This document shows positions 1 through 64,000 of a stretch of 64,000 bases of DNA, piece by piece; positions within the stretch are counted from its first letter, which is position 1, and each line of letters opens with the position of its first letter. The translations under genes were made by a program, and so were the position numbers. The stretch is from NCBI GenBank assembly GCA_001244265.2, contig LN717261.1, forward strand, positions 1,999,591-2,063,590, given 5' to 3'. This stretch comes from Microbotryum violaceum. Lineage: Eukaryota. A model generated the notes under the pieces. The model had not been told where the DNA came from. It searched no databases and saw only the letters and a list, made by a program, of their open reading frames with translations.

Positions 1-70
1 AGTACATCACATTGCAGGTCAACGGTTACGGTGTGAGGTGGCGGCGCGCTCCACGCGCCGCCGAACCTAG
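1..70 (+). mobile_element. Helitron family B 3' terminus (element starts left of the window)
   Basis: GC hairpin GGCGGCGCG-CTCCA-CGCGCCGCC is followed by GAAC-CTAG (67-70). The same terminus recurs at 6717, 14194, 15959, 49878, 53243 and 61588. Confidence 0.85.
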
Positions 71-131
71 TCTTTACCCTAACTAGTTACCCTAACTAGT
101 AAAAAAAAAGTGAGTTAAGGAATGTACCTAA
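71..131 (+). mobile_element. Helitron family A 5' terminus (truncated) with 2 copies of TACCCTAACTAGT
   Basis: Starts with TC directly after the CTAG. It matches the reverse complement of ~5385-5433 and ~6485-6530, which lie upstream of family A RepHel-derived sequence. Confidence 0.7.
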
Positions 132-3044: not shown

Positions 3045-5433
3045 CCAGTGGGAACCCGTTAAATTAACGGGAGGATGTAATTCAAAAAATAGCAGGATAA
3101 TCGAACAGTCTACATGATATCAGCGCAGAGGTTAAGAAAACACAACACGAAGTACAGCAAAGAAACAAAATCCATTCATCTTACATTCATCGCCGAAACA
3201 GCCTGCATGTCGCTTGTTGCCGGATTGGCTTCAAACACTTGTGCAATGAGATCCGGACGGTTGCATGCTTTGTCATTCGGCCCCAGTGCAGCCTTGATTT
3301 CCGGTGCTTCGGGGACGTACGACATTGTGATGAGCAGCGGAGGCTTTCCATGTTTGACAACGCACGCCATCGCATCCTGGTATCGCTGCGTGATGTCGCG
3401 CGGTCTATTCTTGAACGTCGAGCCCAAGGTCATCGAACGTCCAATTGGGTTCGGGGCCAAGCCGTTGATGCCTTGGGTCGTGGTGAGGTGTAGGTTCTCT
3501 TGATGCAACCGGATGTGTAGAGTCGATCGGTCTCGACTTGGAGTATATCCATAAATCACAGACCCCAGGAAGGGACGTTGGGTGCAATGCGGGATTGAGA
3601 AGTACTCGTCGCCTTTGGCAAGTAGTGCGCAAAGAATTGTGAACGCGAGACTCGCCACCTCGACCCCTTTACTGGACCTTTGTCCTAGGTGTTCAAAAGT
3701 TCAATGTCAGTCTGTGCTTGCGCCTTAAACAGAATGGAACATCAGAGAAAGAGCCGAAGACGCGTACGTTCGCCATCACCATCCTCTTCGTCCCCTTCCT
3801 CGCGGTCTTCATCCTCATCATCGCGGTCTTTGTCCTCCTCGTTCGTCATCCAGACCGAGACCGGAAGCACCTCGCGCAATTGGACACCATTGTCGATCTG
3901 CTCTCGGTTTCTGGCGATGGGCGGCCCGGCTTGGTGGAACCCGCAAAGAGGAGTGTTGAGGTGGGAGCTATTTTCCTCTGCGGCGAAGAGTGTTGGGTAC
4001 CGGAGAGGCATCGCAGACGGATGGAGCGAGCTGACGACTTGGTACTTGGGTCGACCATCGGGACATCGATGACTGCGCACCTGGACAATAAGTTCTTGCG
4101 GTCCACGATCTCCCGTGTTGGTGTCGGAATCGCAGATAAGCATCGTCATTTCCGTGCTCGGCGGAGGAAGGTTGTGGGTGCGTCGGTCTCGGCCTGGTGG
4201 TAGACAGAGGCGCAGGACCCACTCTTTGGCCGTATCCCCAGCCTGCGCAAGCTTTGGCCGATGCAAACTCCTTCACAAAGCGGTTTCCGGTACGCGGACT
4301 CGAGCTTGGTCAAAGTAGGCCTTTGTATGCGACTGCCTGCGCCGTTGAGTCCAAGTCGAGTGTCGGTGGCGGCTGGGTCGATCAGCTACGTTTGAGCAAA
4401 GGCTGGAGCGTTGATTGACGACAGGGATCTGGACGCCGAGTCGAGGAGTAAAGCCGATCAAGCACGCGAAACACGCGGGGTCCTAGAATGCCCAGTCGAG
4501 TCTGGTCAAAGTGAGCAGCGAGCAGAGTCAACGACAACGCGTTGTTGTACGACCGGGCGTTCTCGCGCAATGCTATAGCTTCTGTGTGCGTGGGAAGATT
4601 CTTGCACAGTTCAGCATGTGGGTCTACTGCAGACGACGGTTGTTGGACGGAGCAACTGACCGCTATCCGAGCCTTCACGTAGCTGTCGACACTCGGGATT
4701 GTGCCGGAGAGGGGGAGGTAGCTGCACCTTGCCCTGCGAAAACGTGGGGCTTGAGGGGTTCGAGCGCGATTCGAGGCCTGCGCGCTCGCCTTTGCGCGCC
4801 TTTGCGCAGGAGGATGTGGTGGTGGGGTGAGCTCAACGTGCTGCCCATTCTACAAAGCTGTACGGGGGGCGCTCAACACCAAGATCGGTTGAGTTGTTGT
4901 TAATCACGCGCGGGGAGCTGATTCTGTTGATCGGAGCGGGACGAAGAGGAGAATCGAGCAGCGGGGCGCGAGTGTAGCTCGCGCCCGAGACTTACTGACA
5001 CAGACTCACACCGCCAGCGCGCCGCATCACGTGACAGACGACACAGACGTCAGACGTCAGATCGTCAGACGCCAGCCCTCGCGTCGCGCGTCAGGCGGAG
5101 CTCTGCTGTAGAAGCAATATCATGCAAAGCCACGCGCTTGCGGTTCATTAAATGCAATATGAGTGGAAGCATTGGTTTATGTCAGCGAAGAAAAGAAAGG
5201 AAATACTGGGAGCGCTGTAGCTTCGTTGGAACGGCGCGGAAAATACAAAAGTCACCATAGGGCTTGTACATAACTTCTGATCGGAACCCCAACACCACAG
5301 GCAGGTGCGGCAGACACAACAGTATGCTGGTACATCCACCGCAGGCGGCCCGGAGGGCCGCAACCTAGTTAAAAACAGCGATTTTAGGTACATTCCTTAA
5401 CTCACACTTTTTTTTTACTAGTTAGGGTAAAGG
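3045..5433 (-). mobile_element. Internally deleted Helitron family A copy
   Basis: Carries Rep N-terminal fragments homologous to 8200-10080 (HQENLHLTT, RYQDAMACVVKHGKP, RPDLIAQVFEA). The 3' hairpin CCCGTTA..TAACGGG plus CTGG ends at 3045, and the 5' end (C)CTTTACCCTAACTAG is at 5433. Confidence 0.85.
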
Positions 5434-5849: not shown

Positions 5850-6716
5850 CATGGTACGGCGCTACCCTCGCGCCCAAGACTTGGCGAGGTTGCGATGGCC
5901 CTCCCTGAGTCCCTGGCGACCTTGGGACCGGGACATAGCAGCGAGGGTTTGTTCTTGAATGAGTGTCACTAAGATTGGATGAGAGTGAGAGGGAGAAAGG
6001 AAAGGTTCGAGGGAGTGGCGCAGGATTATTTACGTGGTTTGATTTGTTGTTCAGCCCCTAATGCCGCTGGTCGAATGCCATACGGGCAAATTGGTTGTTC
6101 AGCCCCTAATGCCGCTGGTCGACTGCCGGAATGACACTGACACCGCCGGCGCACCGCATCACGTGACAAACGCCAGCCCTCGCCTCGCGTGTCAGGCAGA
6201 GCGCTGCTGTAGAAGCAATATCATGCAAAGCCACGCGCTTGCGGTTCATTAAATACCATATGAGTGGAAGCATTGTTTTATGTCAGCGAAAAAAAGAAGG
6301 AAAATACTGGGAGCGCTGTAGCTTCGTTGGAACGGCGCGGAAAGTACAAAAGTCACCACAGCGCTTGTACATGACTTTTGATCGGAACATGAACACCACA
6401 GGCAGGTGCGGCAGACACAACAGTATGCTGGTACATCCACCACAGGCGGTCCGGAGGGCCGCAACCTAGTTAAAAACAGCGATTTTAGGTACATTCCTTA
6501 ACCCACACTTTTTTTTTACTAGTTAGGGTAACTAGTTAGGGTAACTAGTTAGGGTAACTAGTTAGGGTAACTAGTTAGGGTAACTAGTTAGGGTAACTAG
6601 TTAGGGTAACTAGTTAGGGTAACTAGTTAGGGTAACTAGTTAGGGTAACTAGTTAGGGTAACTAGTTAGGGTAACTAGTTAGGGTAACTAGTTAGGGTAA
6701 CTAGTTAGGGTAACTA
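5850..6716 (-). mobile_element. Helitron family A 5' fragment ending in the expanded 13-mer array
   Basis: 5850-6160 is the reverse complement of ~7917-8170, and 6170-6530 is nearly identical to 5070-5429. Confidence 0.8.
6518..6712. repeat. Perfect tandem array (ACTAGTTAGGGTA)x15, containing TTAGGG
   Basis: 195 bp equals 15 x 13 bp, read directly from the sequence. Confidence 0.97.
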
Positions 6717-6770
6717 CTAGGTTCGGCGGCGCGCTCCGCGCGCCACCTCACATTGAGAATCAGCAGTTCC
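6717..6770 (-). mobile_element. Helitron family B 3' terminus
   Basis: The minus strand reads AACTGCTGATTCTCAATGTGAGGTGGCGCGCGGAGCGCGCCGCCGAACCTAG. Confidence 0.85.
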
Positions 6771-6794
6771 TTGTGCAATGAATTGTCTTTGTTG

Positions 6795-7860
6795 TCACGG
6801 TCTTATACGCACTAGTCCGAGTCGTGTACCACACGGCAGGCAGTAGCGCTCAGATCCTGATGTAGTCATCGCAATTACAGTCATAATTTGCCGATGATTA
6901 AGGATAGCTGCCGCAAAGATGAAACAGAAGGTCAGTGAGAAAACGAAATCCAGAGTCCGAAGCAGCAGATGACATACTTGTATCACATGAATGAAAAGTT
7001 CCACCGCGAGTGATTCCCAGGCGAATTGCACCACATCGACCGCTATCCGAGGTGGTTGTTGGCGGGCTTGCTGACCCGCACCGGGGGGAAGCGTTGCCCA
7101 TTCTGCGTCGACACCGACCACTAGTTTCCCTTCTGGGGGGATGTTGTCCGCCATGACTTTCATCAGACGAGTCAAAGCGTACGGTGATTGCACCAAGGTC
7201 GGCGTTATCCCCGGTGGCATCTTGAGAATGCCGTATTCGGAGCCAGAGTGCGACTGGACCCGTGGCGCGAGCGACGGTATCTTGCTCCTCAAGGAAAGGC
7301 CATCGGTGTCGGGTTGATCTGTGTAACAGATCGTGGGTGCCTCGTTACCATACAACTCTAGATGCTTGGTCATCGCTTCGAGCGAAGTCTCGAATGCCGA
7401 GTGGCCCTTTGTTGAGGTAAGCACGTGGGCGCGCACTTCGCCATATTCGTTCCCGACCATGAGCAGTGCGATGAAGGGGGGACCCCTTCAACCTTGGCAA
7501 TCTGCTTCGGGACCTGCAACGATCGGGCGCGGGGCATTAGCTGCTTGCGCTACTGGCCAAGGGCAAGCACGGTTGGTGTTGTAAAGCTAACGTTACCTTG
7601 TAACTGTGATCGATGGTCTTAATTTTGCAGGGCTTTAGCGATTCAGCATGACTGAAAAGCGTTTCTTGTCTGAAAGACCAGCAGAACATAATCAGTAAAC
7701 ACGACATCTACGTAACGTTACATCCAACCAAGCACTCACTTTCTCATCACGGAATCATAGAACTCCTGAAGAACCTGAGAATTCGGTACGTGGCCGCAAT
7801 TACCCGTCGGATCTTCCCAGTCTCCGAGAGCAGGGTACAAGCTAGTTGATAGCAAGTCAG
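6795..7860 (-). pseudogene. Fragment of a Mutator-like DDE transposase fused to a DEDD 3'-5' exonuclease start
   Basis: The spliced reading gives ...GHVPNSQVLQEFYDSV / KTIDHSYK|VPKQIAKVEG...LLMVGNEYGEVRAHVLTSTKGHS...CYTDQPD...PSL...LVVGVDAEW...VDVVQFAW. DxE is an ExoI motif. The family assignment comes from motif memory. Confidence 0.55.
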
Positions 7861-7916
7861 CTTCACGCGCCAAGATTGCCGATCGATAGTTCACCTCGAG
7901 TCGGTCATGAGCGGCG

Positions 7917-10900
7917 CGATGCGGTGCGCCGGCGGTGGAGTGTCATTCCGGCAGTCGACCAGCGGCATTAGGGGCTGAACAACAGATCAAACCACGTAAA
8001 TAATCCTGCGCCACTCCCTCGAACCTTTCCTTTCTCCCTCCCACTCTCATCCAATTTTAGTGACACTCATTCAAGCACAAACCTTCGCTACTATGCCCTG
8101 GTCCCAAGGTCGCCAGGGAGGGCCATCGCAACCTCGCCAAGTCTTGGGCGCGAGGATAGCGCCGTACCATGGGCCAGCTCGAGCGCCCGCTGCTGGGCGC
8201 CCCGCGGCTCGACCCTCTTCGTCCCGCACCGATCAACAGAATCAGCCCCCCGCGCGTCATGACAACAATGCAACCGATCTTGGCATTGCGACACGTATAC
8301 GAGCCCGCCGTGCAGCTGTGCAGAACGGACAGCGTCGTCAGCGCGATGGCCAACTCGACGCTGGGCTCGCCCCACCACCACCACCTCCGCAAAGGCGAGT
8401 GCGCCGGGCTCGAATCGCGCTCAAACCCCTCAAGCCCCACGTTTCGATCCGCGACGACCTCCGCAGACGGCCGTGTGCACCCACTGCAAGGCTCGGCACT
8501 GGGAGTGCGAAAGGTCGAAGTCGACCAGACACTTCAGCGCGTGCTGCTCGCAGGGCAAGGTGCGGCTACCTCCCCCTCCCCAGCCCAATCTCGAGTATCG
8601 GCAGCTTCTTCAAGGCTCGGATAGCGGTCAGTTGCTCCGTCCAACAACGTTCGTCTGCAGTAGACTCACATGCTGAACTGTTCTACCCACCCACACAGAA
8701 GCGGTTGCATTCCGCGAGAATGCCCGGTCGTACAACAACGCGTTGTCGTTCACTTCGCTCGCTGCCCTCTGGGACCAAACTCAAGTGGGCACGCTAGGAC
8801 CCCCGTGTTTCGCGTGTTTGGTCGCCTCTACCATCGACTCGGCGCCCTGATCCCTGCCGTGACTCAACGCCCAACCTTTGCTCAAACATGGCTCATCGAC
8901 CCGGCCGAGGCCACCGACACTCGACTTGGACCCGACGGCGCAGACAGTCGCATTCAAAGATCAACGCTGACCAAGCTCGAGTCCATGTTGCGCACCGGCA
9001 ATCGCTTTGTGAGGGAGTTCGCATCGGCCAAAGCCCGCGCGGGTTGGGATACGGCCAAAGAGTGGGTCCTGCGCCTCTGCCTACCACCAGGCCGAGACCG
9101 ACGCACCCACAACCTTCCTACGTCAAGCACGGAAATGGCGATGCTTCTCTGCGATTCCGACACCAACACGGGAGATCGTGGACCGCAAGACCTTATTCTC
9201 CAGGTGCACGGTGATCGATGTCCCGATGGTCGGCCCAAGTACCAAATCGTTAGCTCGCTCCATCCGTCTGCGATGCCTCTCCGGTACCCACTACTCTTCC
9301 CGCGGGGGAAGATGGCTTCCACCCCAACATTCCTCTTTGCGGTTTCAACCAAGCTGGGCCGCCCATCGCCAGAAACCGAGAGCAGATCGACAATGGTGTC
9401 CAATTGCGCGAGCTACTTGACGGCCTTGGTCCAGATGAAGAAGACGAAGAGGAGGACGATGAGGATGAAAGCGACGAGGAGGACGAAGAGAATGGTGATG
9501 GTGAACGTAAGCTAAGCGTCTTCGTCTCATTCTCATATACCTCTCTGTTGAGACGCACCCTCAGACTGACATAAATTGTTCGAAAATCTAGGACGAAGAT
9601 CAAACAAGAGGGGTCGAGGTGGATCAACCCGAGTTTCGCGTTCCCAATACTTTGCATATCACTTGCACGAACGCGACGACTACTTCTCCATTCCGCATGT
9701 CACCCAGCGTCTCTTCCTCGAGTTCGTGATTGACGGATACTCCCAAGTCGAGACCGATCGACTCAACTACATCCGGTTGCATCAAGAAAGTCTGCGCCTT
9801 ACCACGGCCCAAGGCATCACCGACGCTGTTGCCAACGGCCTGACCCCGGATCAAATTGGACGTTCGGTGATTTTGGGCTCGACGTTCAAGAATAGCCCGC
9901 GCGAGATCACGCAGCGCTACCAAGATGCGATGGCTTGCGTCGTCAAATATGGAAAGCCTTGGCTGTTCATCACGGTGACGTGCAACCCCGAATGGCCGGA
10001 AATCAAGGCTGCACTGGGGCCGAACGACAAAGCATGCAACCGTTCGGATCTCATTGCACGAGTGTTTGAAGCCAAGCTGAACCGACTCTGCGACGACGTT
10101 TTTGGCAACAAGCAACGTGCAGGCTGTTTTGGCGTGGTTCTGACGCATACACATGTGATTGAGTATCAGAAGCGGGGCCTGCCACATGCCCATATCCTCA
10201 TCACCCTCGCGCCGGACGATCATCCTTTGTCGACGGAAGCGATCGACAAGATGATCTCGGCCGAGATACCCGATCCTTCGCGCTATCCTGATCTCCACGA
10301 GACCGTCACAAAGCACATGCTGCATGGCAAGTGTGGCGGAAACTCGACTCAGCCCTGCATGGAGAAGGATAAGTACGGTAATCCGAGGTGCAAGCGCCAT
10401 TTTCCTCGCGAACAGAACCCCCACACCCGCATGCACCCTGAAGGCTACCCGTTGTATCGCCGACGCTTTCGCCACGCCGTTGTCAAGGGGGTGTTATCTA
10501 CAACGATGGTGACTGCGTGTCGTACTCGCCTTATCTCTGCGCCAAGTACAATGCGCATATCAATGTGGAGGCTGTGACAACGGTCGGCGCGATCAAGTAC
10601 CTCTTCAAGTATGTGTACAAAGGTCCGGATCGAGCTGTGGCGCGTGTTGAGCGTGCAGCGAACGGTGAAGGGGCTCGCGAGGACGAACCGGTTCGAGATG
10701 AGATCAACGAGTTCGTCGAAGGTCGCTACATCAGTGCTCCAGAAGCGGTCCACCGCCTATTCGGATTCTCGGTCGGTAGAGTGTGGCCACCCGTCAACCG
10801 ACTACCGGTCCATCTGGAGAATCAACAATCTGTGCAGATCAATCCCAATGAACCGCTGCCCCTCGACACTCCGCCCACTCGCTCCAAACTGACCGGCTTC

Positions 10901-13356
10901 TTCGACCTGTGCGCTGCAGCTCCCGACGGCGAGCTCACTACCACGTTGCTCTACACGAATGTGCCGCGCTACTACTCCTGGAATAAGGAGAAGTTGCGCT
11001 GGAAACGCCGAGTCCATGATTGCAATGTCATTGGACGAATCTACACCGTCCCACTGCGTAGTGGGGAGCGCTTTTACCTCAGACTGCTCCTCGAGGTCGT
11101 CATGGGCCCGACATCGTTTGCGGACCTGCTCATGTTCGAAGACGTCGTGTATCCTTCCTATCGCGCCGCTTGCGCCGCTCGCGGACTTCTCGCCGACGAT
11201 GGCGAGCATCACATCTGTCTCAGGGAAGCTGCACAGATTGAAACCGGTGACCAACTACGCCGATTATTCGTGTTCATGCTCATCCATGCGACGGTTGCCA
11301 ACCCACCAGCTTTGCTGGATCGTCACTTTGCTTCTCTTAGCGACGATGCCCGTTATCACATCGAACGCTATGAAGACGTGCCCGTCAACGATCAAACCAT
11401 CCGCCTGTGGACCCTCAACAAGATTGGTCTCCTCCTTGCGGCAAACGATCAAACTTTGGCCTTCTTTGATCTTCCCGAGCTGACCGAGGACAAAGTGCGG
11501 CTGTTTGATCGTCTCGAGGAACGGCTTCCCCGTTTTGATCGCCAGCAATGCGCGCAAGATGCCGAAGCGGCGCATGCCCGTCTGAACCACGACCAATGAA
11601 TTGCATTTGACGAGTGCTTTGCGCGGTCGAGCTCGATGTCGTCGATCAGATGCGCGACAACAACCTTGGGCCGCAGCATGTGTTTTTCCTGCTAGCACCT
11701 GGGGGTACTGGCAAGACTTTTGTGGAAAATGCCCTTCTCGATACTGTGCGAGCTCGAGGCGACCAAGCGATTGCGGTGGCGTCGTCCGGAGTAGCGGCGT
11801 TGCTTCTCAAGGGAGGACACACGGCGCATTCAACTTTTCGAATCCCACTCGACACCTTGCCAACCTCGACGTGTCCAGTCGACAGGGAGAGTGATCTCGC
11901 GCTGATGCTGCGTACCACCAAGCTCATCATTTGGGATGAAGCCCCAATGGCGCATCGATTCGCGGTGGAAGCTGTCGACCGTTTACTGCGTGATCTCCGA
12001 GAGACCGAGGAGCACTTCGGCGGGGTGACAATGATCTTTGCGGGTCAGTTGGGCTCTTCCGCCTCCGCTCTGAACAGCGGCATGCTAACGAGGTTTCCAA
12101 TTTGTAGGGGACTTTCGCCAGTGCCTTCCTGTTGTTCCCAAAGGAACTCCCGGTCAAATCGTCGATGCATCCCTCATCAAGGCAGACTTCTGGCGCGACG
12201 TTTGTGTCTTGCGACTTACCGAGAACATGCGTCTCAGCTCGAACGCTGATGCGATAGACGAGGCTCATTTGGCTCGAACGCGCGACTTTGCGGAATGGCT
12301 ACTCACCGTGGGAGATGGAACTGCCAACATGCACCCATACAACAAGATTGCAGTACGTTTGGCTCCCCTCTTTTACCCAACCAACCGACACTAAGACCCC
12401 TTCTATCCGTTTCGCAGCTGCCTGATTACCTGCTGCTTCCGGACGGTCAAAGAACGGCCGAAGAGTTGATCAACTTTGTCTACCCCGGTTTAAGGACCGT
12501 GAACAAGGAGTCCCTCGAAAACCTGATTCAGCTGTTCTCACGTCAGGCAATCCTAGCTCCGCATAATGCAACGGTCGATCGCATCAATGCCAAGCTGCTG
12601 GAAGAGTTCAATGGCGACTACATCGAGTATCGCAGCGCAGACGAGGTCGTTGAGGCAGGCGAAACTGGGGTGGAATGGCGCCGGAACTGATTTCGCCAGA
12701 GTATCTACATTCAATCAACCCATCCAACTTCCCGCGCATCACTTGCGTCTCAAGGAAGGGATCCCCGTCGTTCTTCTTCGCAATTTGGACCCAGACGCGG
12801 GCCTCTGCAACGGTACCCGCCTGATCGTGTCGCACGCAAGATCGAGAGTCATTCAAGCCATCATCTTGACCGGAGATCGAGCGGGCACCACGGTCTTCAT
12901 CCCTCGCGTGCGACTTGAGACAAATGCGACTGGCAGTCGCCAACTTGGTTTCACTATGCGCCGGCTCCAATTCCCGCTTCGCGTTGCCTTGGCCATGACG
13001 ATCAACAAAGCCCAAGGTCAATCACTTGATTGTGTTGGCGTCCATCTCTCCCTACATCCCGTCTTCACTCATGGGCAGCTGTATGTGGCATTGTCTCAAG
13101 CCATGAGTGTTGATCGAATCAAGGTGCTACTGCCCTCTCGCGACCCCGCCGATGATGACGACGACCTACAAGCCGTTGATCGAGCGGCAGCCGCAGCCAC
13201 CGCGACCCCAAACCCAGTATTCCGCTCTGTTCTCAGAGCAATGAATGGGGAATAGTTTTGAAACTGTCCTTTGTATTGTGTGTTTTACCTTCAACTGAGA
13301 TCACGATTCTGCTATTTAATTTTCATCCTCCCGTTAGTCTAACGGGTTCCCACTGG
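7917..13356 (+). mobile_element. Helitron family A, near full length (5' tip missing)
   Basis: Contains RepHel. The 3' hairpin CCCGTTAGTCTAACGGG (13330-13346) is followed by CTGG (13353-13356). Confidence 0.9.
8060..13255 (+). pseudogene. Helitron RepHel (Zn-finger, HUH Rep, PIF1-like SF1 helicase), frameshifted
   Basis: Motifs are CTHCKARHW..CC, FITVTCNPEW, VIEYQKRGLPHAHIL, YLFKYVYKG, GGTGKTF, IIWDEAPM, LTENMR, GLCNGTRL, MTINKAQGQS and FTHGQLYVALS. It has several frameshifts, a stop at 11597, and introns at ~9507-9570, ~12044-12107 and ~12353-12417. Confidence 0.95.
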
Positions 13357-14194
13357 CGTGTGCCAATCTTTCAAAAGCAAAACGCAGGGCAGCATGACCA
13401 ACTGACCGGTTCGACTGTAACATCACTGGGGATCCGAAGCAATGCCTTCCCGTTATTCTCAAGTCATCGCCTGCATCAATCGTCGACGCTTGCTTCATGG
13501 AATGCTGACTTCTGGGGGAAGTTGGGGTGCTGCTTGACTTCGTACGGTTGAGAATCCGGGTCATTGGCACACTAAATGTGAGTCTTTACTGCCCTGGCTA
13601 GAGATGGACAACAGCAAGAATAATGATAGTTGCACAACGTCTCGGAGGTCTGAAGGCCAGCAACGACGAAGGCTCGAGCGAGAGCGTTCCGGTCCGGTCC
13701 CACACAGTTTTTCGCCAAACCCTGCCTCTACCGCATCAACATCGACGGATCATTTTATTTCCAGAAGATTTAGGGCACAACAATTGCGGAGACTCCGGGA
13801 AAGGCAGCAAATTTGATTCTATCAATCAATCGCCTCCACCTCAGCCAACGCCCAACGTCCACTCTGTCCCGGTGGATGTCGCCGCAGTCACCAATTGCAC
13901 TGCTTCCACTGCCGGAAAATCAACTTCATCCAATGGATCCACCACCTGTGAACGTTGCGATCTCTCGAAGGTCTCAAGATCAGCAGAGACGTCGTCAACA
14001 GGAAAGTCTTGAGCGAGAGCGTTCCGTTCCGGTCCCGCACAGTTCTCTGCCCGACCCTCCCCTTTGCCAAATCACGACGAATCAGTCCACCTCCAGGAGA
14101 TCAGAAGATAGATGAAAGCAGCGTAGAACCGTAGCCATCTGCAACTGCTGATTCTCAATGTGAGGTGGCGCGCTTCGCGCGCCGCCGAACCTAG
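13357..14194 (+). mobile_element. Helitron family B 3' portion (non-autonomous modules)
   Basis: It consists of inverted copies of the modules at 55130-55640 and 61660-62470, ending in hairpin plus CTAG at 14191-14194. Confidence 0.8.
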
Positions 14195-14319
14195 TGACTT
14201 GGGAATAGCGGGAAGGCGTTCCCTCGGATCCCCTATGATGTTACAGTCCAATCAGTTAGTTGTGCTGCCCTGCGCCTTGCATTTGAAAGATTGGCACATA
14301 CCTGCCAACACAACGGTCA

Positions 14320-14656
14320 CAACAGCAAAATGGCCACGCGCGCGAACCCGCTTAGGGATTCGCCCGAGATTACGCGCGCTTAACAGCGCTTAACGGTGCA
14401 TAAGATGCGCATAAGGACGCATGCGCGCATAAGAGCGCTTATGGACCGCTTTGCGTATGCAAACAAAGCGCGCGAGGAGTCTTAAGCGCGCCGTAAGTGC
14501 GCCGTAAGAGTCCCTTATCTAGGGTACACTTAAGCGACACTTAACGCGCGCGCGGCTTAACGAGTGGTTAAGGGCGCTTAAAAGCAGCTTTAGGCCGCTT
14601 AACGACTGCTTTACGAGGTTTCGCGCGCTTACGCGCGTTTGGCCATTTTGTTGATG
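14320..14656. mobile_element. 337-bp MITE, EnSpm/CACTA-like
   Basis: 17-bp TIRs CAACAGCAAAATGGCCA / CATCAACAAAATGGCCA have 2 mismatches, with a 2-bp TSD CA. The empty site ACGGTCACTCCACC is seen at 62531. Many internal TAAG/CTTA-CGCG subrepeats are present. Confidence 0.8.
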
Positions 14657-14980
14657 CACTCCACCGAACCGAGCCGTGGAATAACGGGAAGGCATTGCTT
14701 CGGATTTCCTGTGATGTTACAGTCCAGCCGGTCATTAGTCATGCTGCCCTGCGTTTTGCTTTTGAAAGTTCGGCACACACCTGCTTACGTGATGGTCACC
14801 CCACCGAACCGAGACGTTGAGGATCTCCCACGGGATGGTGAGCCGCAATTCACGCGGCCAGAGCCCGTTTTCTTGCGTGATTCGTTACAACTATCAGTAT
14901 TCTTGCTGTTGTCCATCTGTAGCTATGGCAGTGAAGACTCACATTTTGTGTCCCATGAACCCGGATTCTCAACCGTACAA

Positions 14981-15132
14981 TGTCAACTTGAATCCTTCCG
15001 CTGTTTCACTGATGTTCAATGTCTGTTCGTATCAGTTTTCCGTCATAACTAAGACTGCACAGCCATGCCAAGGGATAACTCACGCATGCAGTGTCACCAC
15101 CTGATGTTGAAGAAACAACTCGAAAGTTGACA
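14981..15132. mobile_element. Probable short solo LTR
   Basis: Inverted termini TGTCAACTT...AAGTTGACA with flanks TACAA/TTCAA (imperfect TSD). Confidence 0.5.
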
Positions 15133-15805
15133 TTCAAAGAGGTCATGTTGAAGGGAATCTCTGCTTGGTAGTTCCCCATCAGCTTCTAACCAATCCCACA
15201 CCAAGAGCACAGTTCATGAAGTTACTTACTCGAATTCGTAGCTATGTTGCATGCGGCAGGCATTTCTGTATCCTGTATTCGTTGCAGAGCTTCCACGACG
15301 ACCGCTTCGGATGTCGCAAGCTCGAGGTGGCGATGGGATGAGGTGCGGTAGGTAAGGTGTGAAGAGCAGGAGGGAGAAAGATGGAGAAGTCTGCGCCTCA
15401 GTTCAAACCGGAGTCATAGAATGTCGCGGAAGGCCGCGGAATGTCGTGGAGTGAAGCCCGAAGCAGAGGGTCATGTGCCAGGCTGCTTTGATGGGAAATG
15501 GAACCTCGGCGAACGTGGACGAAACGGTCTGTCGTCACGTGGTTTGTCTCCCGTTCTCTGACATTCTTTGACATCGACGTGGTAGACACACGAAACAGTC
15601 TGCTTCGGGAGACAGAGAGTCACGTCACGTGCTATTCAATGGAACCTCGGCGAACGTAAGCGAAACGGTCTGAAACAGCGCTATGTAGCTAGCTGGGACG
15701 CGCTGGACCGAGAGTTGGCTATGACGTCACGCCACGTGGTTTGTCCTTCGTTCTCTGACATTCTTTGACGTTCTTTGTCTCGACGGATCCATTTAGTAGT
15801 ATATA

Positions 15806-15958
15806 CTAGTGCGGTGGCGCGCTTCGCGCGCCATGACGTCACGCCACGTGGTTTCTCTCGTTCTAGAACGTTCTTTGTCTCGACGTATCCATTTAGTAGT
15901 ATATAATATATAATAATAATAATATATAGTATATAGTATATAGTATATTAGTAGTATA
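15806..15958 (-). mobile_element. 153-bp mini-Helitron (family B 5' end fused directly to a 3' hairpin)
   Basis: The minus strand has a TATAC/TAT microsatellite, then ...CTACTAAATGG...GTGACGTCAT, then GGCGCGCGAAGCGCGCC-ACCGCA-CTAG. Confidence 0.8.
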
Positions 15959-18906
15959 CTAGGTTCGGCGGCGCGCTCCGCGCGCCACCTCACACCGTAA
16001 CCGTTCACCTGCAATGTGATGTACTTCGCTGCGGTACTGCTGAGTAACGCAAGCGTAGTGGTTGAAGTCGGGAGAGGACCGCGCGACGACAATCAAATGC
16101 AAACAGCCATTCTGGGAGCCCGATGATGAGCTCAGACTGCCGTCGAGACCCGCATCGAGTGCGGACCTTTTCATGGATGCCTCCCGACATCGACATCCCT
16201 CACCTGCTATTGCCGGAGCTTCACTATGGAGCTTTGACATGACTCTTCATTTCACCGTACCAAACCGAGCCGTTGACGATCGCACATCTTGCAACATCCT
16301 GTCCACCATCACCGCCAGCGTGTCAAAGGATTGACTTCGTACGGTGATTGCGTTGGATAATCACCTCCACCCCAGCCAACGCCCGATGTCAAATCCCACA
16401 CGCCGCACAGTCACCAATTGCACTGCGCTTGACATCGGGCGTTGGCTGGGGTGGAGGCGATTGTCCAACGCAATCATTTTACCCTGTTCTCCTGGAGGTG
16501 GACTGATTTGTCGTGATTTGGCAAAGGCAGGGCTCGGCAAAGAACTGTGTGGGACCGGACCGGAACGCTCTCGCTCGAGCCTTTCCCGTTAACGATGTTG
16601 TTGCTGGTCTTCAGACCTCCGAGACGTCGTGCAACTACCAGCCTTTCCCGTTGACGATGTCGTTGCTGATCTTCAGACCTCCAAGACGTCGTGCAACTAT
16701 CAGTATTCTTTCTGTTGTCCATCTGTAGCAATGCAGCAGCAGGTCGAGCACCATGTCGTTGATGTGATCCACGCCCAATTTTGCTCGCTCTCGGAAGTAT
16801 TCGACTTCTTCGCCTATCGACATATTGTCCAGTTCGAGCGCGGGGACGGGCTAGCCGTGTCTGATCAACCCGGAGCTGTTCCTTGTGGTCGCCGGCAGGA
16901 GAAGCTCACATGGGAGCCCGATAGTCTTCTGTTTCGTTCGCCAAGCCGTCTCCAACTCCGAACTCCGAAGAGCCAATCTGCAAAGCCCTGTGCCTTTGCC
17001 TGTTCCGTTTCGGCCATGCGGTTTGCAGCGGCCAGAAGAGGCATGTTTGTCTGCGCTCGCACTGTGCCGTTGTTAGCCTAGTATAGGGTCTAAAGGTCAG
17101 GCAAGGACTACCACTTACAGAGAGATCCCCGCAGAAGTCAACATTCATGATGCAAGTGTAAGGCTCGGTTGCCTTACGCTATTTAACCACCCTTCTAATT
17201 TCAATATGCATCTATTGAAATCGTCAGTCTTTTGGACCATGTAACCTAGTCGTGAAGGGCCTGGGGTATTACAGCAAGCGTCGACGATTTGTGTAGGCAA
17301 TGACTTGAGAATAACGGGAAGGCATTGCTTCGGATCCTCTGTGATGTCACAGTCCAACCGGTCAGTTAAGCATGCTGCCCTGCGTTTTGCTTTTGAAAGA
17401 TTGGCACATACCTGCCAACGCGATGGTCACCCCACCTAACTGAGCCGTGGAATAACGGGAAGGCATTGCTTCGGATTTCCTGTGATGTTACAGTCCAACC
17501 GGTCATTAGTCATGCTGCCCCGCGTTTTGCTTTTGAAAGATTGGCACACACCTGCCAACACGACGGTCACTCCAACAAACGGAGCCGTTGAGGATCTGCC
17601 ACGAATGGTGAGCCGCAATTCACGGAACCTGTTTTTTTTTGCGTGATTCGTCCTTTAGAACTATCAGTATTCTTGCTGTTGTCCATTTATAGCAACGTGC
17701 CGCGTCTAAAAAATAATAAAAAAGAGCTCAGTTCATGAAGTTACTCACTCGAATTCGTAGCTATGTTGCATGCGGCAGCCATTTCTTGATCCCGTATTCG
17801 TTGCAGAGCTTCCACGACGACCGCTTCGGATGTCGCGAGCTTGAGGTGGCGATGGGATGAGGTGCGATGGGCAAGGTGTGAAGAGCAGGAGGGAGAAAGA
17901 TGGAGAAGCCTGCGCCTCGGTTTGAACCGGACTCATAGAATGTCGTGGAAGGCCGCGGAACGTCGTGGAGTGAAGGCCCGTGACACGCTGGCGGGGCCCC
18001 TAACGGTGGAATTGGCGCACTGGCCGACGCTACCCGAGGTCCGGAACTGGTTCAAGTGGACGAACGAATCTCAAGCTCGGAGATGAAGAACTGCGGGCCC
18101 GTTGCACTTGCCGTGCGACATTGAGACTGCCTGCTGCCGGTGCAGTTGACTTGACGAACCAGTTTGCGCGACGTCGTCTTGATCGGTTTCGCGCTGCTGC
18201 TTCTGGCGAAGGTATCGTTGCCGCTGAGCTTCGGCGATTGTTCGAGGTTGCTGGCGGCGGCGTCTGTGCGATTAGAGCGGAAGTCGGGTTGGGCGGAGGA
18301 GCGCGAAGGCGGCGGGCATCCATACATTCAAGTTTTTACTGTCCTCATGCGCGAGGTCTGGGCTGATGATTTCCTCCCCCTTTGCACACAGCGCGAAGCA
18401 GCCTCGTTGGCGGCCCTCTCAGCCTCGCGGACGGCGCGCTGACCTCGCTCACATTGGCGACGTCTCGGCTGCCCCTGTCCTCTCCATGAAGATTCGTAGT
18501 GGAGAGTCTTCTGTACGTGAAAGATTACAGATGACATTTCGGCAGTGGCAGGAAGTAGATGCTCGAAGTAACTATGCTACGATGTGGTAGACACGCAAGA
18601 CAGGTCGTCTGAGCCAGAGTCATTGATTTGATGGAAAATGGAACCTCGGCGAACGTAGAGGAAACGGGCTGTCACTGGCCGACCCCTGCTAAAACCGCGG
18701 TAGCTAGCTGGGCCGGGGGGACGCGCTGGACCGAGAAATAGAAAAGTTGAGTATTAATTAGTGTTAAACCTGCGAATCTATTGGAATGAAAGATATTTCT
18801 CTAGCTGCTGATGACGTCACGCCACGTGGTTTGTCTTTTGTTCTAGAAGATTCTTTGTCTCGACGTATCCATTTAGTAGTATATATATATATATATATAT
18901 AGAAGA
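15959..18906 (-). mobile_element. Non-autonomous Helitron family B with both ends
   Basis: 5' TCTTCT(AT)n is at 18906 and the 3' hairpin plus CTAG is at 15959. 16690-17150 is nearly identical to 55590-56070. Confidence 0.8.
17157..17273. mobile_element. 117-bp solo LTR-like insertion
   Basis: Termini are TGTAA...TTACA with TSD GCAAG (17152-17156, 17274-17278). The empty site is at 56061-56075. Confidence 0.8.
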
Positions 18907-18971
18907 ATAGAAGATATACATTTAGCAGTATAGAAGATAAGTTTTAAGGATAAGGATAAGGATTAAGGATT

Positions 18972-34308: not shown

Positions 34309-39175
<4,867 letters not shown>

Positions 39176-52171: not shown

Positions 52172-53860
52172 GGGACAGAAGATGAAAGGAAGAAGAGCCC
52201 TGTTGGAACCCGTTTAACGAAGCCATAAAACCGGGACGGACATCTGGACACCGGGCCTCGTTCGGCCGGCTCTTCACGTACGCCGGCTCGGTGCGGACAG
52301 GGGCCGCTGCGATCGGGCCCGCACTGAGCCCGTGCAGTGAAACCGGGTGATCGTGCTAATCGGACCAATCAAAATGATCGGGCAGGTCAGGAAACTTACT
52401 CGTAGAGACATTCCTATTCCTCTGCCAAAAAACTCAATCAGTAGCAGTGCTGCGGAACGACAGGGCTTCCATGTCGCACAAAGGCGCTGCAAAAGTTGGA
52501 GTGTCGGCAACACGTCGTCCGTCGGCGTGCCAGATCGAGTTCGGTGTGGAGGTGCTCGAATGCCGAACGTCCTACTGTGGCTCGCTTCTCGAAGCACGCT
52601 CGGAGTCAGCTCAGTCCGATCGCCGCCCGCTTTGGATCTTTGGCTTCTCGCCCAACCAGCTAGTTCACCTACGAGCCTCGTCACGACTACCGCGTCGCCC
52701 CTGAAAATCTCACCACACCCTCTTTTGCTTTTGCGCACAAAATCCGAAGCAATGACTGCGGCGAACCTGGAGCCCGTCAGGGCCGCTGACCCGCACGCGA
52801 CTCTCGCCGCTTCGGACTGTTTTCATGCAAAGGGACGGTTGGATCGACGACAAAATTTGGTACAAGCCTCGGGCACATCACGGAATCGACGTCGAGTCTT
52901 ACTTCACACACTTCATCGCACACGAACCTTCAATCAACCTCAAAGAACCTTGCGCCGGCTGCTCATCCGCTAACCAATCCCCGACGAGCAACAATTGGCA
53001 CGGTTCATACCGCGATTCGGACGCTCGGCGACAGTTCAGCCTGCCAGCACGCTCACCGCACCAACTAAATGCTTAACAACGGGCCGCGCACAGATTAACC
53101 CGCTGCCTCTTCTGTCCCGTTGCCTGCGGCATTAAGCCCAAGGATGACTCCCAACGCATGGTCAAGCATTCTCTCACCGGTGACATCGTCGGCGCCGCGG
53201 CCGAGGCCGTGGTCGACGCCGCATTAGATTACTACCTCTATACTAGGTTCGGCGGCGCGCGAAGCGCACCACCTCACACCGTAACCGGTGACCTGCAATG
53301 CGATGTACTTCGCTGCAACAGCTGCAGTACTGTTCAGTAACGGAAAGCTAGTGAAGCAGGTTGTGAGAGGGCCGCACGATGACAATCACATGTACAGAGC
53401 CTTCACGGACGCCAGTTTTGCTCGCTCTCGGAAGTATTCGACTTTTTCGCCTATCGACATATTGTCCAGTTCGAGCGCGGGGACGGGATAAACGTGTCTG
53501 ATCAACCCGGAGCTGTTCGTCGTGGTCGCCGGCAGGAGAAGCTCACGTGGGAGCGCGATAGAGTCTTCTGTTTTGTTCGCCGAGCCGTCTCCAACTCCTA
53601 AGAGCCAATCTGCAGAGCCCTGTGCCTTCGTCTGTTCCGTTGCGGTCATGCGGTCTGCAGGGGCCTGAAGAGGCATGTTTGTCTGCGTTCGCACCGTGCC
53701 GTTGTTAGTATAGGGTCTAAAGGTCAGGCAAAGACTACTACTTACAGAGAGATCCCCGCAGAAGTCAGCATGTATGATGCATCGACGATTTGTGCAGGCG
53801 ATGACTTGGAATAACGGGAAGGCATTGCTTCGGATCCTCTGTGATGTTACAGTCCAACCG

Positions 53861-55080
53861 TGTTCATGACTAGATCACCTCCTTTCGGGTCTAATATTAC
53901 ATACTTAAAATAAAATTCGAGATGTACTAATTACTCGTCAAATCTGGACCATTTCCTTTTCAACCATTTTTACAAAATGACTCATTTACCTTTCGATTTA
54001 GATTTACCTTTTCCATTTCATTTTTATTTTTATTTTTATTTTCATTTAAAAATGGGCGAGTCTAATTCTTTTTGTATTATGATGATAGAAAAGTATCTAT
54101 TCATCATGTATGAGGCGATGTAGAAAGCGTTATTAGAAAAAGTTATTATGGTGGTTTAACTACTGTAAATAAAAATACTGTTTTTGTCCTCGCCCATTTT
54201 TATTTTATTTTTTTGCATAAAAATAAAAAATAAAATAAGAAAGGGCGCTTGCGCCAAAAAAGTATTTAATACGCGTTGAATTAAAAAAGATGGACATTCT
54301 ATTAAAAATCTTATTTTGTCGCTTATTTTTATGCAAAAAAAAAAGCGACAAAATAAAAATAAAGAAGAAGGGTTAAATTTTCCTCGCGCTTATAACAGTA
54401 ATTTCACTAATTAATGAGAAACTTTATCTTGGTCCATAGAAAGTACTTCAGATCCGCACCAGTTTCGTTTTATACCTTTTCACCAATTCGCGTTATTTAT
54501 ATAAAGGATATCTAAACATTCTTTAATAATAGATTCACTAAATGACACTGTTTTTGTCCTCGCCCATTTTTATTTTTATTTTTTTGCAAAAAATAAAAAA
54601 TAAAATAAAAAAGGGCGCTTGCGCTTTTGTAGGCTTTTTTAGTGCCGAGACTAAAAATAAATAAAAAAACCTTGTTCCCTTTTTTGCAAAAAGCTCTTTT
54701 TTGATTCCAAAAAGGCCTTTATCATTACTATTTTTTAGACAAAGAAGAGAAAAACAAGGGAATAAACAAGTTCATTCTCAACTCGTTCATTGCGCCTTTT
54801 TTGGCCATTATTTCCTGTTTTTATTTTTATTTATTTTATTTTTGCTTGCCAAAAATAAAATAAATAAAAATAAAAATAAAATAAAGGAATAGGTAAAAAG
54901 CTCTTTTTTTTGATCCTCAAAAAAAAACAGCGCTCGATTAATCAAGCGCAATTTCTGCGCCTTCCCACGATATTTCCTCGAGTATAATCTTTTAGGATCC
55001 ACCGTTAGCATCTAAACATTTAACAATATTTGAGATACCGATCTACTTATTTTTCCAAAATAAAGGCCAAATAAAAATGG
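53861..55080. other. NUMT-like AT-rich insert (mitochondrial or mitochondrial-plasmid DNA)
   Basis: An abrupt AT-rich 1220-bp block sits inside a Helitron intron repeat (..CCAACCG|GTTAGTC..) with no TSD. It contains duplicated hairpin elements (~54177-54254 and ~54547-54624). Confidence 0.8.
54066..54180 (+). pseudogene. Fragment of protein-primed DNA polymerase B (mitochondrial linear-plasmid type)
   Basis: With TGA=Trp it reads FFLYYDDRKVSIHHVWGDVESVIRKSYYGGLTTVNKNT, containing the IRxSYYGG (YxGG) motif. A possible ExoIII remnant YL-IRDV lies near 53900-53945. Confidence 0.65.
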
Positions 55081-56089
55081 GTTAGTCAATCATGCTGCCC
55101 TGCGCCTTGCTTTTGAAAGACTAGGTTCCCACCTCACATTGAGAGACATTGTTGCAGATGGCTACGGTTCTACGCTGCTTCATCTATGATTTTGGGGATT
55201 TTTGCAGGACTGGACAGAAGATCCATTGCACCTAAGTTATGTCGAGGGTAGGCTCCCGGCAGTGGACGCAGTGCAATCGGTGACTGTGCGGCGGGGGGAT
55301 GTCGCCGTGCGCGAACTGAACGCGCTCCCGGAGGTTCCGGACGGTGATTCGTCGCTGCGGGATAGCGTTGGCATCGGGCGTTGGCTGGGGTGGAGGCGAT
55401 TGATTGATAGAATCATCTTGCTGCCTTTCCCTAAGTCTCCGCAATTGTTATGCCCTAGATCTTCTGGAAGTAGAATGATTCGTTGATGTTGACGTCGATG
55501 TTGATGCGGTAGAGGCAGGGTTCGGCGAAGAACTGTGGGACCGGACCGGAACGCACTCGCTCGAGCCCTTCGTCGTTGCTGGCCTTCAGACCTCCGAGAC
55601 GTCGTGCAACTATCAGTATTCTTGCTGTTGTCCATCTGTAGCAAGGCGGCAGCAGGTCGAGCACCATGTCGTTGATGTGATCCACGCCCAATTTTGCTCG
55701 CTCTCGGAAGTATTCGACTTCTTCGCCTATCGACATATTGTCCAGTTCGAGCGCGGGGACGGGCTAGCCGTGTCTGATCAACCCGGAGCTGTTCCTTGTG
55801 GTCGCCGGCAGGAGAAGCTCACGTGGGAGCGCGATAGCCTTCTGTTTCGTTCGCCGACCCGTCTCCAACTCCGAACTCCGAAGAGCCAATCTGCAAAGCC
55901 CTGTGCCTTTGCCTGTTCCGTTTCGGCCTGCGGTTTGCAGCGGCCAGAAGAGGCATGTTTGTCTGCGCTCGCACTGTGCCGTTGTTAGCCTAGTATAGGG
56001 TCTAAAGGTCAGGCAAGGACTACCACTTACAGAGAGATCCCCGCAGAAGTCAACATTCATGATGCAAGCGTCGACGATTTGTGTAGGCG

Positions 56090-56670
56090 ATGACTTGAGA
56101 ATAACGGGAAGGCATTGCTTCGGAGCCTCTGTGATGTCACAGTCCAACCGGTTAGTTAGTCATGCTGCCCTGCGCTTTGCTTTTGATTGGCACACACCTG
56201 CCAACACGACGGTCACTCCACACTCCACCGAACCGAGCCGTTGAGGATGACGGGATGGCATTGCTTCGGATTCCCTGTGATGTTACAGTCCAACCGGTCA
56301 GTTAAGCATGCTGCCCTGCGTTTTGCTTTTGAAAGATTAGCACATACCTGCCAACGCGATGGTCACCCCACCAAACCGAGCTGTGGAATAACGGGAAGGC
56401 ATTGCTTCGGATTTCCTGTGATGTTGCAGTCCAACCGGTTAGTTATTCATGCTGCCCTGCACTTTGCTTTTGAAAGATTGGCACATACCTGCCAACACGA
56501 CGGTCACTTCACCGAACCGAGCCGTTGAGGGTGACGGGAAGGCATTGCTTCGGATCGCCTGTGATGTCACAGTCCAATCGGTCAGTGAGTCATGCTGTGC
56601 TGTGCTGTGCTGTTGAAAGATTGGCACTCACCTGCCAACACGACGGTCAGTCCACCAAACCGAGCCGTTG
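56090..56670 (-). repeat. Four tandem ~145-bp units (exon stub, intron, exon stub) of the helicase motif III region
   Basis: ACGGGA(A/T)GGCATTGCTTCGGA recurs at ~56104, 56251, 56391 and 56534. Each unit has GT(G/A)(T/A)GTG...CACAG on the minus strand. Confidence 0.9.
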
Positions 56671-59600: not shown

Positions 59601-60326
59601 CCGTTGAATCTTCGTTGGGCTTCAACGCGTTCGGTTGGAGCCAGGAATAGAATTTGAGCAAAGACGGGGTCGTCTGCTGGGCCTGGGGCTAGCGTGCCGA
59701 TACGGTGAAATACTGTTCCGCTAAGGTAGAAGGATGGTGGTCCGGAGCCGCTGATTATGCCATGGCCCTTGCTTGTGCCGAATGATGCCATAGCAAAGCT
59801 TTCGTTGAATGCAAGAGTGCGGTCCCGAAAGATCTTCTCAGCTGTTTTACGGATAGTCAGCGAGGCCATTAGTCCGCTGTACTCATTCTAGCAAGTTGAA
59901 CGAATCGACGTGTACTAACCTGGGCCATCGCCAGTCAGGAGCTCGAGCAGCTCGGGCGGGGGCCTTTCGATCCCGGGCAATCAAACTTTGCTGTCCGCGC
60001 AACAGAGTTTGAACGGTGTGCCGCCGCCTGGGGTTGATAACTTTTTGAACTCCCAGTGTAGAGCCAAACAGATCGGACACTGCAACGTCATTGATCCAAG
60101 ATCGTGCCGGGGAAAAGGCCCTTCTGGCAACGGTAGCAGCGCAGTTGGGACGGTCTGGCTCAACCGCTCTCTTGCGCGTTGTTGTCGTTGACGCTGCCCC
60201 GCGGATCGTTGATCGACGACAGTAGTGGCTGAAGTCGCAGTTGCTTCTGTACTTGAACTGGCGACGCGAGAAAGGCTTGGAATGGCTTCCAAGCGTGGAC
60301 GAACGAATCTCAAGCCCGGAGGTGAA

Positions 60327-60815
60327 TGTCACGAATGGAAGCTCGCCACTCCGAGTTCGGCCTCTCAGCACTCTCGTCATCCGCGTGACCTCGGCCTTCC
60401 CGCGCCTCGGACCTCCTCTCCCCGCTTCGGCACCTGCACTGCTTTCTTCTCCTCCAACTACACACTCACAACCCTCTCGCCCCCGACTCTTACGTGATCA
60501 TCAACCAAGCTCTATTACGTGATCCTCAGCTCAACATTATTACGTGATCCTCGTGCCTCGCCTCCTCAAGCTCGTCACCTCGTCCCCGACTCCTCTGGTC
60601 TAGTTCCCCCTTTCCGTAGCTTACTTCTCTCTTTCCCTTCTGCAACTCGAATCTCGTCAAAGGTCACATCCTTGCACTCGTCCCTCGTCCTCGTCTCTCG
60701 TCCTCGTCTCTCTTGAGAAGTCCCTAGAACCTCTCTCGACTTGTCCCTCGTCCCTCGCCCCTCGTCTCGAGCCCCTTCGTCCGGCTCGTTCCTCCTATCT
60801 TTGTCCTTCGTGATA
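60327..60815. mobile_element. Solo LTR in the RepHel B N-terminal exon
   Basis: Termini are TGTCACGAA...TTCGTGATA with TSD GTGAA. The empty site is at ~18075-18095. Confidence 0.88.
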
Positions 60816-61587
60816 GTGAAGGACTGCGGGCCCGTTGCACTTGCCGGGCGACATTGGGACTGCCGACTGCCTGTGCAGATCGACTCGACAATCCATTTTG
60901 TGCGACGTCGAGTTGATGGATTGGTGGCGGCGTCTGTGCGATTAGAGCGGGAGTCGGGTTGTGCGGAGGGGCGCCTGCAGCCTCGCGGGCCGCGCGCTCA
61001 GCTCGCTCACGTTGCCGACGTCTCTGCTGCCCCAGTGCTCTCCGTGAAGGTTGTTGTTGAAGAGACGGGACGTGAAAGTTAGCTGACATTTTGGCAGTTG
61101 TAGAGGTTGTTGGTGGGGGCGTCTGGGTCGGGTTGGGCGGAGGAGCGGGAAGGCAGGGGGTCCACACATTCAAGTTTTTTCCTGTCGTCGCGCGCGAGTT
61201 CTGGACTGATGCTTTGCGCGAGGCAGCCTCGTTGGCGGCGTGCTCAGCCTCGCGGACAGCGCGTCGGCGATTCCTCGGCTGCCCATCGGGGCTCTGCTGT
61301 CCGTGAAAATGTTATACAGCAGACGGGACGTAAAAGCTTGCAGATGAACTTTCGGCAGTCACAGGAACTGATGATTGAAGTGCTACGCTACGATGTGGTA
61401 CAGTTGTGATGGGAAATGGAACCTCGGCGAAGGTAGACGAAGCGGTCTCGCCGATGCTGAAACAGCGCTAGCTAACTGGAACGCGCTAGACCAAGAGCTG
61501 CTGATGACGTCACACCACGTGGTTTGTCATTCGTTCTGTGATGTTCTTTAGCCACACAGATTCATTTATAGATAGATAGATAGAAGA

Positions 61588-63835: not shown

Positions 63836-64000
63836 CCACGGGATCTGCCACGGGATCTATACTGCATACTGCATGCTGCACACATTTCTTGAGTGATTCC
63901 CAACAATGCCTTCCCGTTATTCCCAAGTCATCGCCTGCACAAACCGTCGACGCTTGCATCATAGAATGCAGACTTCAGGGGGGAAGTTGAGGTGCTGCAT

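Follow-up and report, generated by a model that had tools for sequence, protein, structure and literature searches.

Helitron 3' ends in Microbotryum violaceum lie beside the 5' leaders of other Helitrons far more often than AT content predicts

We analysed a 64,000-nucleotide stretch of the Microbotryum violaceum genome (GenBank assembly GCA_001244265.2, contig LN717261.1, here C1, positions 1999591-2063590; hereafter the window), in which transposons of two Helitron families, A and B, are joined so that the 3' end of one element adjoins the AT-rich 5' leader of another. The pattern is real and non-random, and it sharpens the known clustering of Helitrons into a proposed base-level targeting rule that can be tested. 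The 33-Mb assembly has 20 contigs and a GC content of 54%. Its contigs C1 (3.47 Mb) and C2 (4.06 Mb), which we take to be the mating-type pair, have identical flanks near one end, and a motif scan of the assembly placed 53 of the 67 exact B 3' motifs on them.

The window is transposon-dense, and profile matches mark two RepHel coding regions, at 8000-13255 (plus strand) and 56582-59443 (minus strand). The matched RepHel fragments of A and B are 43% and 46% identical, so A and B are two distinct Helitron families. Family A, with 170 5' motifs and 205 3' motifs genome-wide, consists mostly of 2.5-kb non-autonomous copies that start with TT and end in a hairpin (7-bp stem) and CTGG. Its start was defined from 18 autosomal copies and one empty site, and the base before it is also T or G in some copies. 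The TT departs from the 5' TC of a canonical Helitron (HLE1), for which HELIANO treats a TT start as unusual. Family A has a RepHel region (Helitron_like_N, PIF1 and Pif1_2B at 9570-13255, followed by the A 3' end), a 3' hairpin with CTRR and an A|T target without duplication. At 3045-3085, the arms of an A 3' hairpin fit the pattern of the vertebrate family Heli1Xen1 (PMC12001565; here and below, statements on published work refer to the available parts of each source). Family B, with 155 5' cores, has several leader subfamilies, a TC start and a hairpin-CTAG end, and includes a 100-bp mini-Helitron (the mini) with its own 3' end, of which 41 mini-type motifs occur genome-wide. Solo copies of B and mini begin TC after A. 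The predicted B RepHel (Helitron_like_N and PIF1 at 56582-59443, within an 8.3-kb element) has its coding split over frames. The stem of the B and mini 3' hairpin stops 8-9 bases short of the CTAG terminus, with folding z-scores of -2.6, -2.0 and -1.2 for three B-type ends. Comparison of empty and filled sites revealed insertion at A|T without target duplication; the empty sites numbered 82 for one A site, 45 LINE (long interspersed nuclear element) tails for one mini site, and 10 of 10 aligned paralogues for another. The short terminal inverted repeats and T|T target of HLE2 (Helitron2/Helentron) were not found: the elements open with an AT-rich leader and close with a CTRR hairpin, and A|T is the target at the verified empty sites; for inverted repeats, no search aimed at them was made.

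The Helitron-derived features of the window are as follows.

1..70, plus strand: B 3' fragment, which begins about 190 bases upstream of the window
74..131, plus strand: family A 5' fragment with one 13-base stutter, three bases past the B end
3045..5430, minus strand: complete non-autonomous family A element of 2.4 kb, with 5' TT and 3' hairpin and CTGG
6518..6716, minus strand: 15.3 perfect repeats of the first 13 bases of A, at the head of an A element reaching about 5848
6717..15805, minus strand: Helitron B no. 2, leader without its first 5 bases; its 3' end forms junction 6717|6716
8000..13356, plus strand: putative family A RepHel coding region (Helitron_like_N, PIF1) in several frames, 5' end missing, A 3' end at 13334-13356
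13357..14194, plus strand: B 3' part with CTAG at 14194, followed by B body DNA (no leader junction)
15806..15903, minus strand: mini-Helitron of family B, about 100 bp, leader missing bases 1-5; 5' core shared, hairpin and CTAG its own
15904..15958, minus strand: stutter spacer of repeated leader pieces (7-base unit and 3-base run)
15959..18906, minus strand: non-autonomous Helitron B no. 1, 2.9 kb, with its 3' end at junction 15959|15958
18907..18969, minus strand: ladder of six 5' stubs from two B subfamilies, flanked by a LINE 3' tail
53229..53242, plus strand: 14-base 5' stub of family A (A2), opposite-facing and flush with a B 3' end
53243..61587, minus strand: autonomous-type Helitron B, 8.3 kb, predicted RepHel at 56582-59443, exact junction at the 5' end
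61588..64000, minus strand: non-autonomous B of about 4 kb, extending beyond the window, its 5' side bearing stubs and a mini; 3' end at junction 61588|61587

No 5' core for the B at 1-70 was found in the 10 kb upstream. Helitron B no. 2 is interrupted by the plus-strand block at about 7950-14194, a 6-kb insertion.

At five places in the window a hairpin-plus-CTAG 3' end adjoins Helitron 5'-leader DNA, the hairpins having been folded for three of the five ends. An earlier note on this DNA had described five spacer-less joins of a 3' CTAG to a 5' end. All five junctions exist, but a full start is reached without a spacer at only one of them, 61588|61587, where the tail of a non-autonomous B exactly meets the start of the 8.3-kb RepHel-bearing B. 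At 70|71, the true start of family A, at 74, comes only after three bases, and at 6717|6716 a 3-base spacer is followed by 15 copies of A's first 13 bases. In the partners at 15959|15958 and 15806|15805 the leader opens at its sixth base, and at the former a 55-base stutter stands before the leader of the mini. These two junctions form the middle of one minus-strand chain of six stubs, B no. 1, stutter, mini, B no. 2 and A.

The frequency of such junctions was scored over about 0.9 Mb of DNA by counting 3' ends with a leader 11-mer starting no more than 25 bases away, with near-identical flanks collapsed. The sample of 178 3' ends gave 158 distinct ones, 116 on C1/C2 and 42 elsewhere; B is near complete, the mini is represented by 36 ends against 41 motifs, and A is a sample partly biased by locus choice. 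The null combined background DNA away from Helitron ends with estimated leader numbers and was weighted by the AT content of non-adjacent sites; a first null over all fetched DNA (2-40%) was dropped, as that DNA had been chosen around Helitron ends. Expected adjacency on C1/C2 and elsewhere was 0.6% and 0.4% if any T can serve, and 6.3% and 3.7% after AT weighting. A leader was adjacent to 63/116 distinct 3' ends on C1/C2 (54%; B 32/54, mini 16/27, A 15/35) and to 9/42 elsewhere (B 3/14, mini 3/5, A 3/23). Junction frequency is far above random, in line with the earlier note. Binomial p values against the AT-weighted null were 3e-44 (C1/C2) and 2e-5 (elsewhere), both overstated because independence was assumed. 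The first base after the 3' end was T in 174 of the 178 ends, and at non-adjacent sites the next 20 bases averaged 63-70% AT. The lower autosomal adjacency fits, by arithmetic, the fourfold lower leader density there.

The main rival explanation differs on whether Helitron ends are recognised as such. It holds that any T followed by A-rich DNA is a target, that leaders are just some of the rare sites of this type in a genome of 54% GC, that insertions are harmless on non-recombining chromosomes where selection is relaxed, and that ends are not recognised. The AT-richness of the non-adjacent sites agrees with this, as do the tenfold rise in expectation brought by AT weighting, the strikes at fixed bases of a LINE tail and another repeat site, the 20 of 72 junctions on the reverse strand and the lower autosomal adjacency. 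Yet 54% was observed against 6% expected even with AT weighting, the 5' stutter described below is limited to the first 15 bases and absent from AT-rich stretches further in, and the lower autosomal rate is predicted by leader density. We consider a generic motif with tolerance an unlikely explanation, although one to be taken seriously.

The 72 leader-adjacent junctions were assigned by hand to geometry classes: 10 are exact, 15 have a spacer of 2-6 bases, 24 lie inside the leader, 20 are reversed and 3 are doubtful, one of the last being a LINE tail. Inside the leader, the partner is clipped by a break mostly after base 5, 7, 12 or 13, often with 1-4 extra TAG. Since only 10/72 are exact, with 24 inside the leader and 20 reversed, the target is an AT-rich leader zone (the first ~20 bases) and not a single A|T dinucleotide. 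Targeted insertion at the A|T just 5' of a resident Helitron, as the earlier note had it, was thus right in that insertion is non-random and too narrow as to the target, the 15 spaced junctions included. Its argument that B-to-A joins and joins of mixed derivatives go beyond one rolling circle was borne out: the units differ in structure or family, which, with 10/72 joins exact, rules out single-circle concatemers.

The exact class bears on a further explanation, capture at a donor nick, which gives the proposal of the earlier note a mechanistic form and whereby the 3'-OH at the nicked 5' end of a resident accepts an incoming element and every gain is an exact head-to-tail join. The 10 exact junctions (including mini-mini-B at C1 627295-627414) and the start of stubs at base 1 are what it predicts; Helraiser cuts at the left end and reuses donors (PMC5876387), and other HUH enzymes integrate at their own nick sites (PMC6049929). 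It is at odds with the 24 junctions in the leader, the 20 reversed and the 15 offset, and cross-family joins would require the nick of one family to be used by the enzyme of the other. Donor-nick capture is insufficient as sole cause, with a minority of junctions compatible, and as the general explanation it is improbable. Other arrangements of ends were also observed. Head-to-head Helitron pairs parted only by both-strand stubs occur at C1 627098/627247, C2 2997633/2997824 and C1 2189767/2189858. At two loci (L018, L100) the DNA after the B end opens with one and the same AT-rich repeat, including a T run; this repeat start may be the leader of a third family outside the library.

Copying was evident in the window. 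The earlier note had treated its five places as separate joins; the joins exist, but they are not five independent events, two clusters having been copied. Junction 6717|6716 lies within a 99.9% duplicate of C1 1908439-1913778. The B-mini-B pair has a sister 170 kb away at C1 2186329/2186743, with 97-99% identity (up to 99.4%). Of 7 segments tested inside the shared block, 6 match this sister best, and sequence comparison thus indicates that junctions 15959|15958 and 15806|15805 were copied together. The 5' flank of the sister differs, its stutter spacer is far longer (C1 2186460-2186743), and no 3' end of the sister chain was found within 4 kb of added sequence. C2 carries three near-identical tandem copies of a 10-kb unit that holds B-mini and B, at about 2995000-3026000 (L103-L106). 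Block copying lowers the weight of the five cases in the window, not the genome count.

Extended to the genome, such copying would mean that a few ancestral composites account for the junctions, having multiplied through read-through transposition, gene conversion and segmental duplication, while slippage produced the short repeats. The B-mini-B sister with its different 5' flank, the duplicate of the 6717 region and the triplicated C2 unit speak for this, and composite transposition has been described in maize and bats (maize, PMC3288121). On the other hand, the 72 junctions were counted after near-identical ones had been collapsed, they involve many partner subfamilies, offsets and both orientations, and the same partner follows different 3'-end subtypes. 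As a general explanation this is highly improbable. A single ancestral composite behind all junctions, the outcome against which the earlier note had staked its proposal, is not the case and is ruled out as the whole story by the 72 distinct junctions with their different partners, offsets and orientations; it is accepted for the two window clusters.

Short 5' stubs accompany many of these junctions, and some are the missing starts of clipped partners. C1 635466 is a clean nest, where a leader broken at base 13|14 becomes intact once a mini and its stutter are excised, and C12 1001264 and C17 155771 are nests of the same kind. Other stubs are orphans. One, proven by comparison with 10/10 empty paralogues, is a 12-base stub of another subfamily at C1 2497243, which is part of the insert and has no remainder, and foreign stubs with non-leader right flanks are found at C4 339070, C13 956352 and C2 3647371. 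For two stub flanks no empty paralogue was found among 181 loci, and the orphan calls there are based on unique flanks only. Orphans can arise from a stub carried as a new left end, from a chain copied from an inner start, a route put forward for maize, or from aborted insertion. The ladder at 18907..18969 holds stubs of 7, 6, 6, 13, 19 and 8 bases and a 4-base filler, each stub starting at leader base 1; a LINE paralogue of its flank lies at 44654-45825, and the remainder expected for the 13-base stub (18938-18950) was not found within the window.

Stutter, the repetition of leader pieces, is specific to the 5' end. Over the first and last 300 bases of A, which were compared for duplications, it was present in the first 15 bases of 6/18 autosomal A copies and in none over the next ~300 bases, and the 3' side showed one 3-base duplication in the last 300 bases across 14 copies. 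A repeat of at least 6 bases is carried by 23/56 A 5' ends and, read by hand, nearly all such repeats begin at base 1 or 7. As many stubs end where the next template base is not T, own-family stutter cannot be a product of nesting. Array turnover is fast, with 15 versus 3 copies of the 13-base unit within the 99.9% duplicate and a far longer array of the 7-base unit in the sister chain. The 13-base unit is the first 13 bases of family A, which rules it out as a telomere seed or 'micro-Helitron'. On the other strand (6518-6716) it holds the common telomere hexamer, and interstitial telomere-like signals here may be Helitron ends. The chains described in the earlier note do exist as joins; what it overlooked were the far-end stubs, the 5' stutter and the fact that ready-made chains are copied.

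The enrichment, geometry, nesting, orphan stubs, 5'-specific stutter and block copying were observed directly. We think it probable, though far from certain, that they reflect a Helitron transposase that prefers resident leaders as targets, of either family or strand, followed by nesting, block copying and nick-rejoin stubs. The preferred target would be a T with ~20 AT-rich bases after it, a description that fits a Helitron 5' leader. No other sites in the genome would then suit the enzyme as well as resident leaders, whichever the strand, over a zone that opens a few bases ahead of the start and closes at about base 20. Insertion in a leader would split it, leaving a stub upstream and a new 3' end against a partner without its first bases, as seen at single loci. 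Whole chains are also copied, perhaps via read-through transposition or recombination, whereby junctions would be moved and stubs parted from their remainders. A nick at the 5' end of a resident, extended by a few bases and rejoined, could produce the duplicated starts that are seen; alternatively, it might take only the first bases of an incoming element, giving stub ladders that start at base 1, and slippage could expand some stubs into arrays.

Published work bears on several of these steps. In the established rolling-circle model the enzyme is joined to the T end of the target in the way it is joined to the left end (PMC4778049), which would make a leader the best-fitting target. The AT-richness of both leader strands and the ease with which they melt would allow reversed and cross-family insertions. 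Helraiser, whose own left end is AT-rich, favours insertion sites with AT-rich DNA on the 3' side (PMC4778049), and left-end nicking primes synthesis from the flank (PMC5876387). More tentatively, and with less confidence than in leader preference itself, we suggest that transposases bind the target like their own left end, that leaders serve as cross-family landing pads, that every insertion supplies a further leader, a positive feedback by which mixed chains grow where recombination is absent, and that aborted nick-and-rejoin events write stub ladders and seed microsatellites and leader subfamilies.

Several points weigh against a preference for leaders. The 701 Helraiser insertions show no clustering near three donors (PMC4778049). 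In our data, the unbiased A sets gave 8-9/30 on C1 and only 1/19 on autosomes, the latter at the level of the null. The null weighs AT content and not base order, so a generic A-rich motif may explain part of the excess; its leader numbers were estimated (225, 189), and the leader library was drawn from the data that it served to score. The scored junctions include a minimum of one false positive, at C1 1528206. The junctions are surviving insertions rather than new ones, from one genome, and insertions within Helitron bodies were put at ~5 by eye. Hot spots also exist outside Helitrons, namely the LINE tail and a repeat site struck by a mini and, judging by the right flank, by B.

Hot spots of this kind were seen at several loci. 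Around 3045-5430, and at L037, L049, L060, L131 and others, A copies of two 5' subtypes occupy an identical position in another repeat; both flanks agree at ~9 places, which may be a hot spot or a converted A-carrying host element. Three A insertions lie at one base of an 82-copy repeat (L132, L138, L143), and at L138 just ~130 bases of A are left between the same flanks. The A-rich 3' tail of the LINE, which starts with TC and an A run and is leader-like, was struck by B-type Helitrons at least 3 times (window 18970-19030 and 45760-45860; L063, L111). At L008 and L069, a multi-copy repeat, probably a long terminal repeat (LTR), holds the end of a B (identified by its right flank) and that of a mini at one identical base.

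Other features of the window stand apart from the junctions. Between the Helitron clusters lie host-type genes matching Vps36 (28068-30583) and a mannosyltransferase (50829-51779), together with a weak Transposase_21 match (21603-23255), an LTR-type reverse transcriptase/integrase (34751-37483) and a LINE reverse transcriptase (42573-45638). Inside the RepHel-bearing B, 1 kb at 54001-55000 has 28% GC and is possibly a captured AT-rich piece or a mutated tract. Internal tandem repeats of 140-143 bases occur in B elements at 17309-17588 and 56095-56675, in numbers that vary among copies.

Parts of this picture are already in print, namely head-to-tail joins with an A|T explanation, insertion near or in Helitrons, multiple termini, composite transposition and tandem arrays. 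An adjacent head-to-tail Helitron pair in maize was explained by an A|T at the 5' end (Du et al. 2008, PMC2267711). That was one case; here there are dozens, in two families and both orientations, mostly inside or beside the leader and with stub ladders. Maize Helitrons insert near or inside Helitrons and have multiple termini (Yang and Bennetzen 2009, via PMC12477314 and PMC3288121; Dong et al. 2011, PMC3288121). The preference for Helitron neighbourhoods is shared, as is nesting followed by transposition from the inner 5' end, which leaves two-5'-terminus remnants (PMC3288121). In their available parts, the maize accounts have no base-level focus on the first ~20 bases, 6-19 base stubs or 5' stutter; the primary paper and its supplement could bear on this. 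The rolling-circle arrays of Helraiser (PMC4778049, PMC5876387), wheat Xuan-Feng (PMC13286980) and Xenopus (PMC12001565) share A|T insertion, an AT-rich 3' flank and the lack of duplication, and have precise CTAG-to-start joins. Those joins unite the ends of one element, whereas here different derivatives or families are joined and the partner is often clipped or reversed; these chains are thus not precisely joined copies of the same element, as tandem concatemers are. TrwC and adeno-associated virus (AAV) Rep are HUH nucleases that integrate at a site resembling their own origin (PMC6049929). They are sequence-specific at the nick, whereas the zone here spans ~25 bases and is strand-tolerant and cross-family; with 24 junctions inside the leader and 20 reversed, the likeness is one of analogy, not membership.

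For Microbotryum itself, Helitron build-up in non-recombining mating-type regions has been reported, with AT-rich targets and nesting invoked (bioRxiv 10.1101/2022.08.03.502670). Helitrons are likewise concentrated on two large contigs here, and no junction-level analysis was found in the available part of that report. Within the literature searched, which did not extend to key primary papers and supplements, there was no account of a leader-wide target zone, its cross-family or strand use, or stub ladders, and the available parts of PMC4683698, PMC13085455 and PMC11934779 hold nothing on leader-focused insertion or stub ladders.

A base-level rule, by which the first ~20 bases of residents of either family and on either strand are the target, would take the account of Helitron target choice beyond 'A|T in AT-rich DNA' and offer a mechanism for the reported clustering; it is directly testable in active systems. 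In such chains, annotation software will put 5' ends in the wrong place and count copies wrongly. If true, the rule would explain why left ends vary more than right ends, would mean that aborted reactions leave a fossil record at the left end, and would supply a feedback that helps explain the build-up of Helitrons in non-recombining regions.

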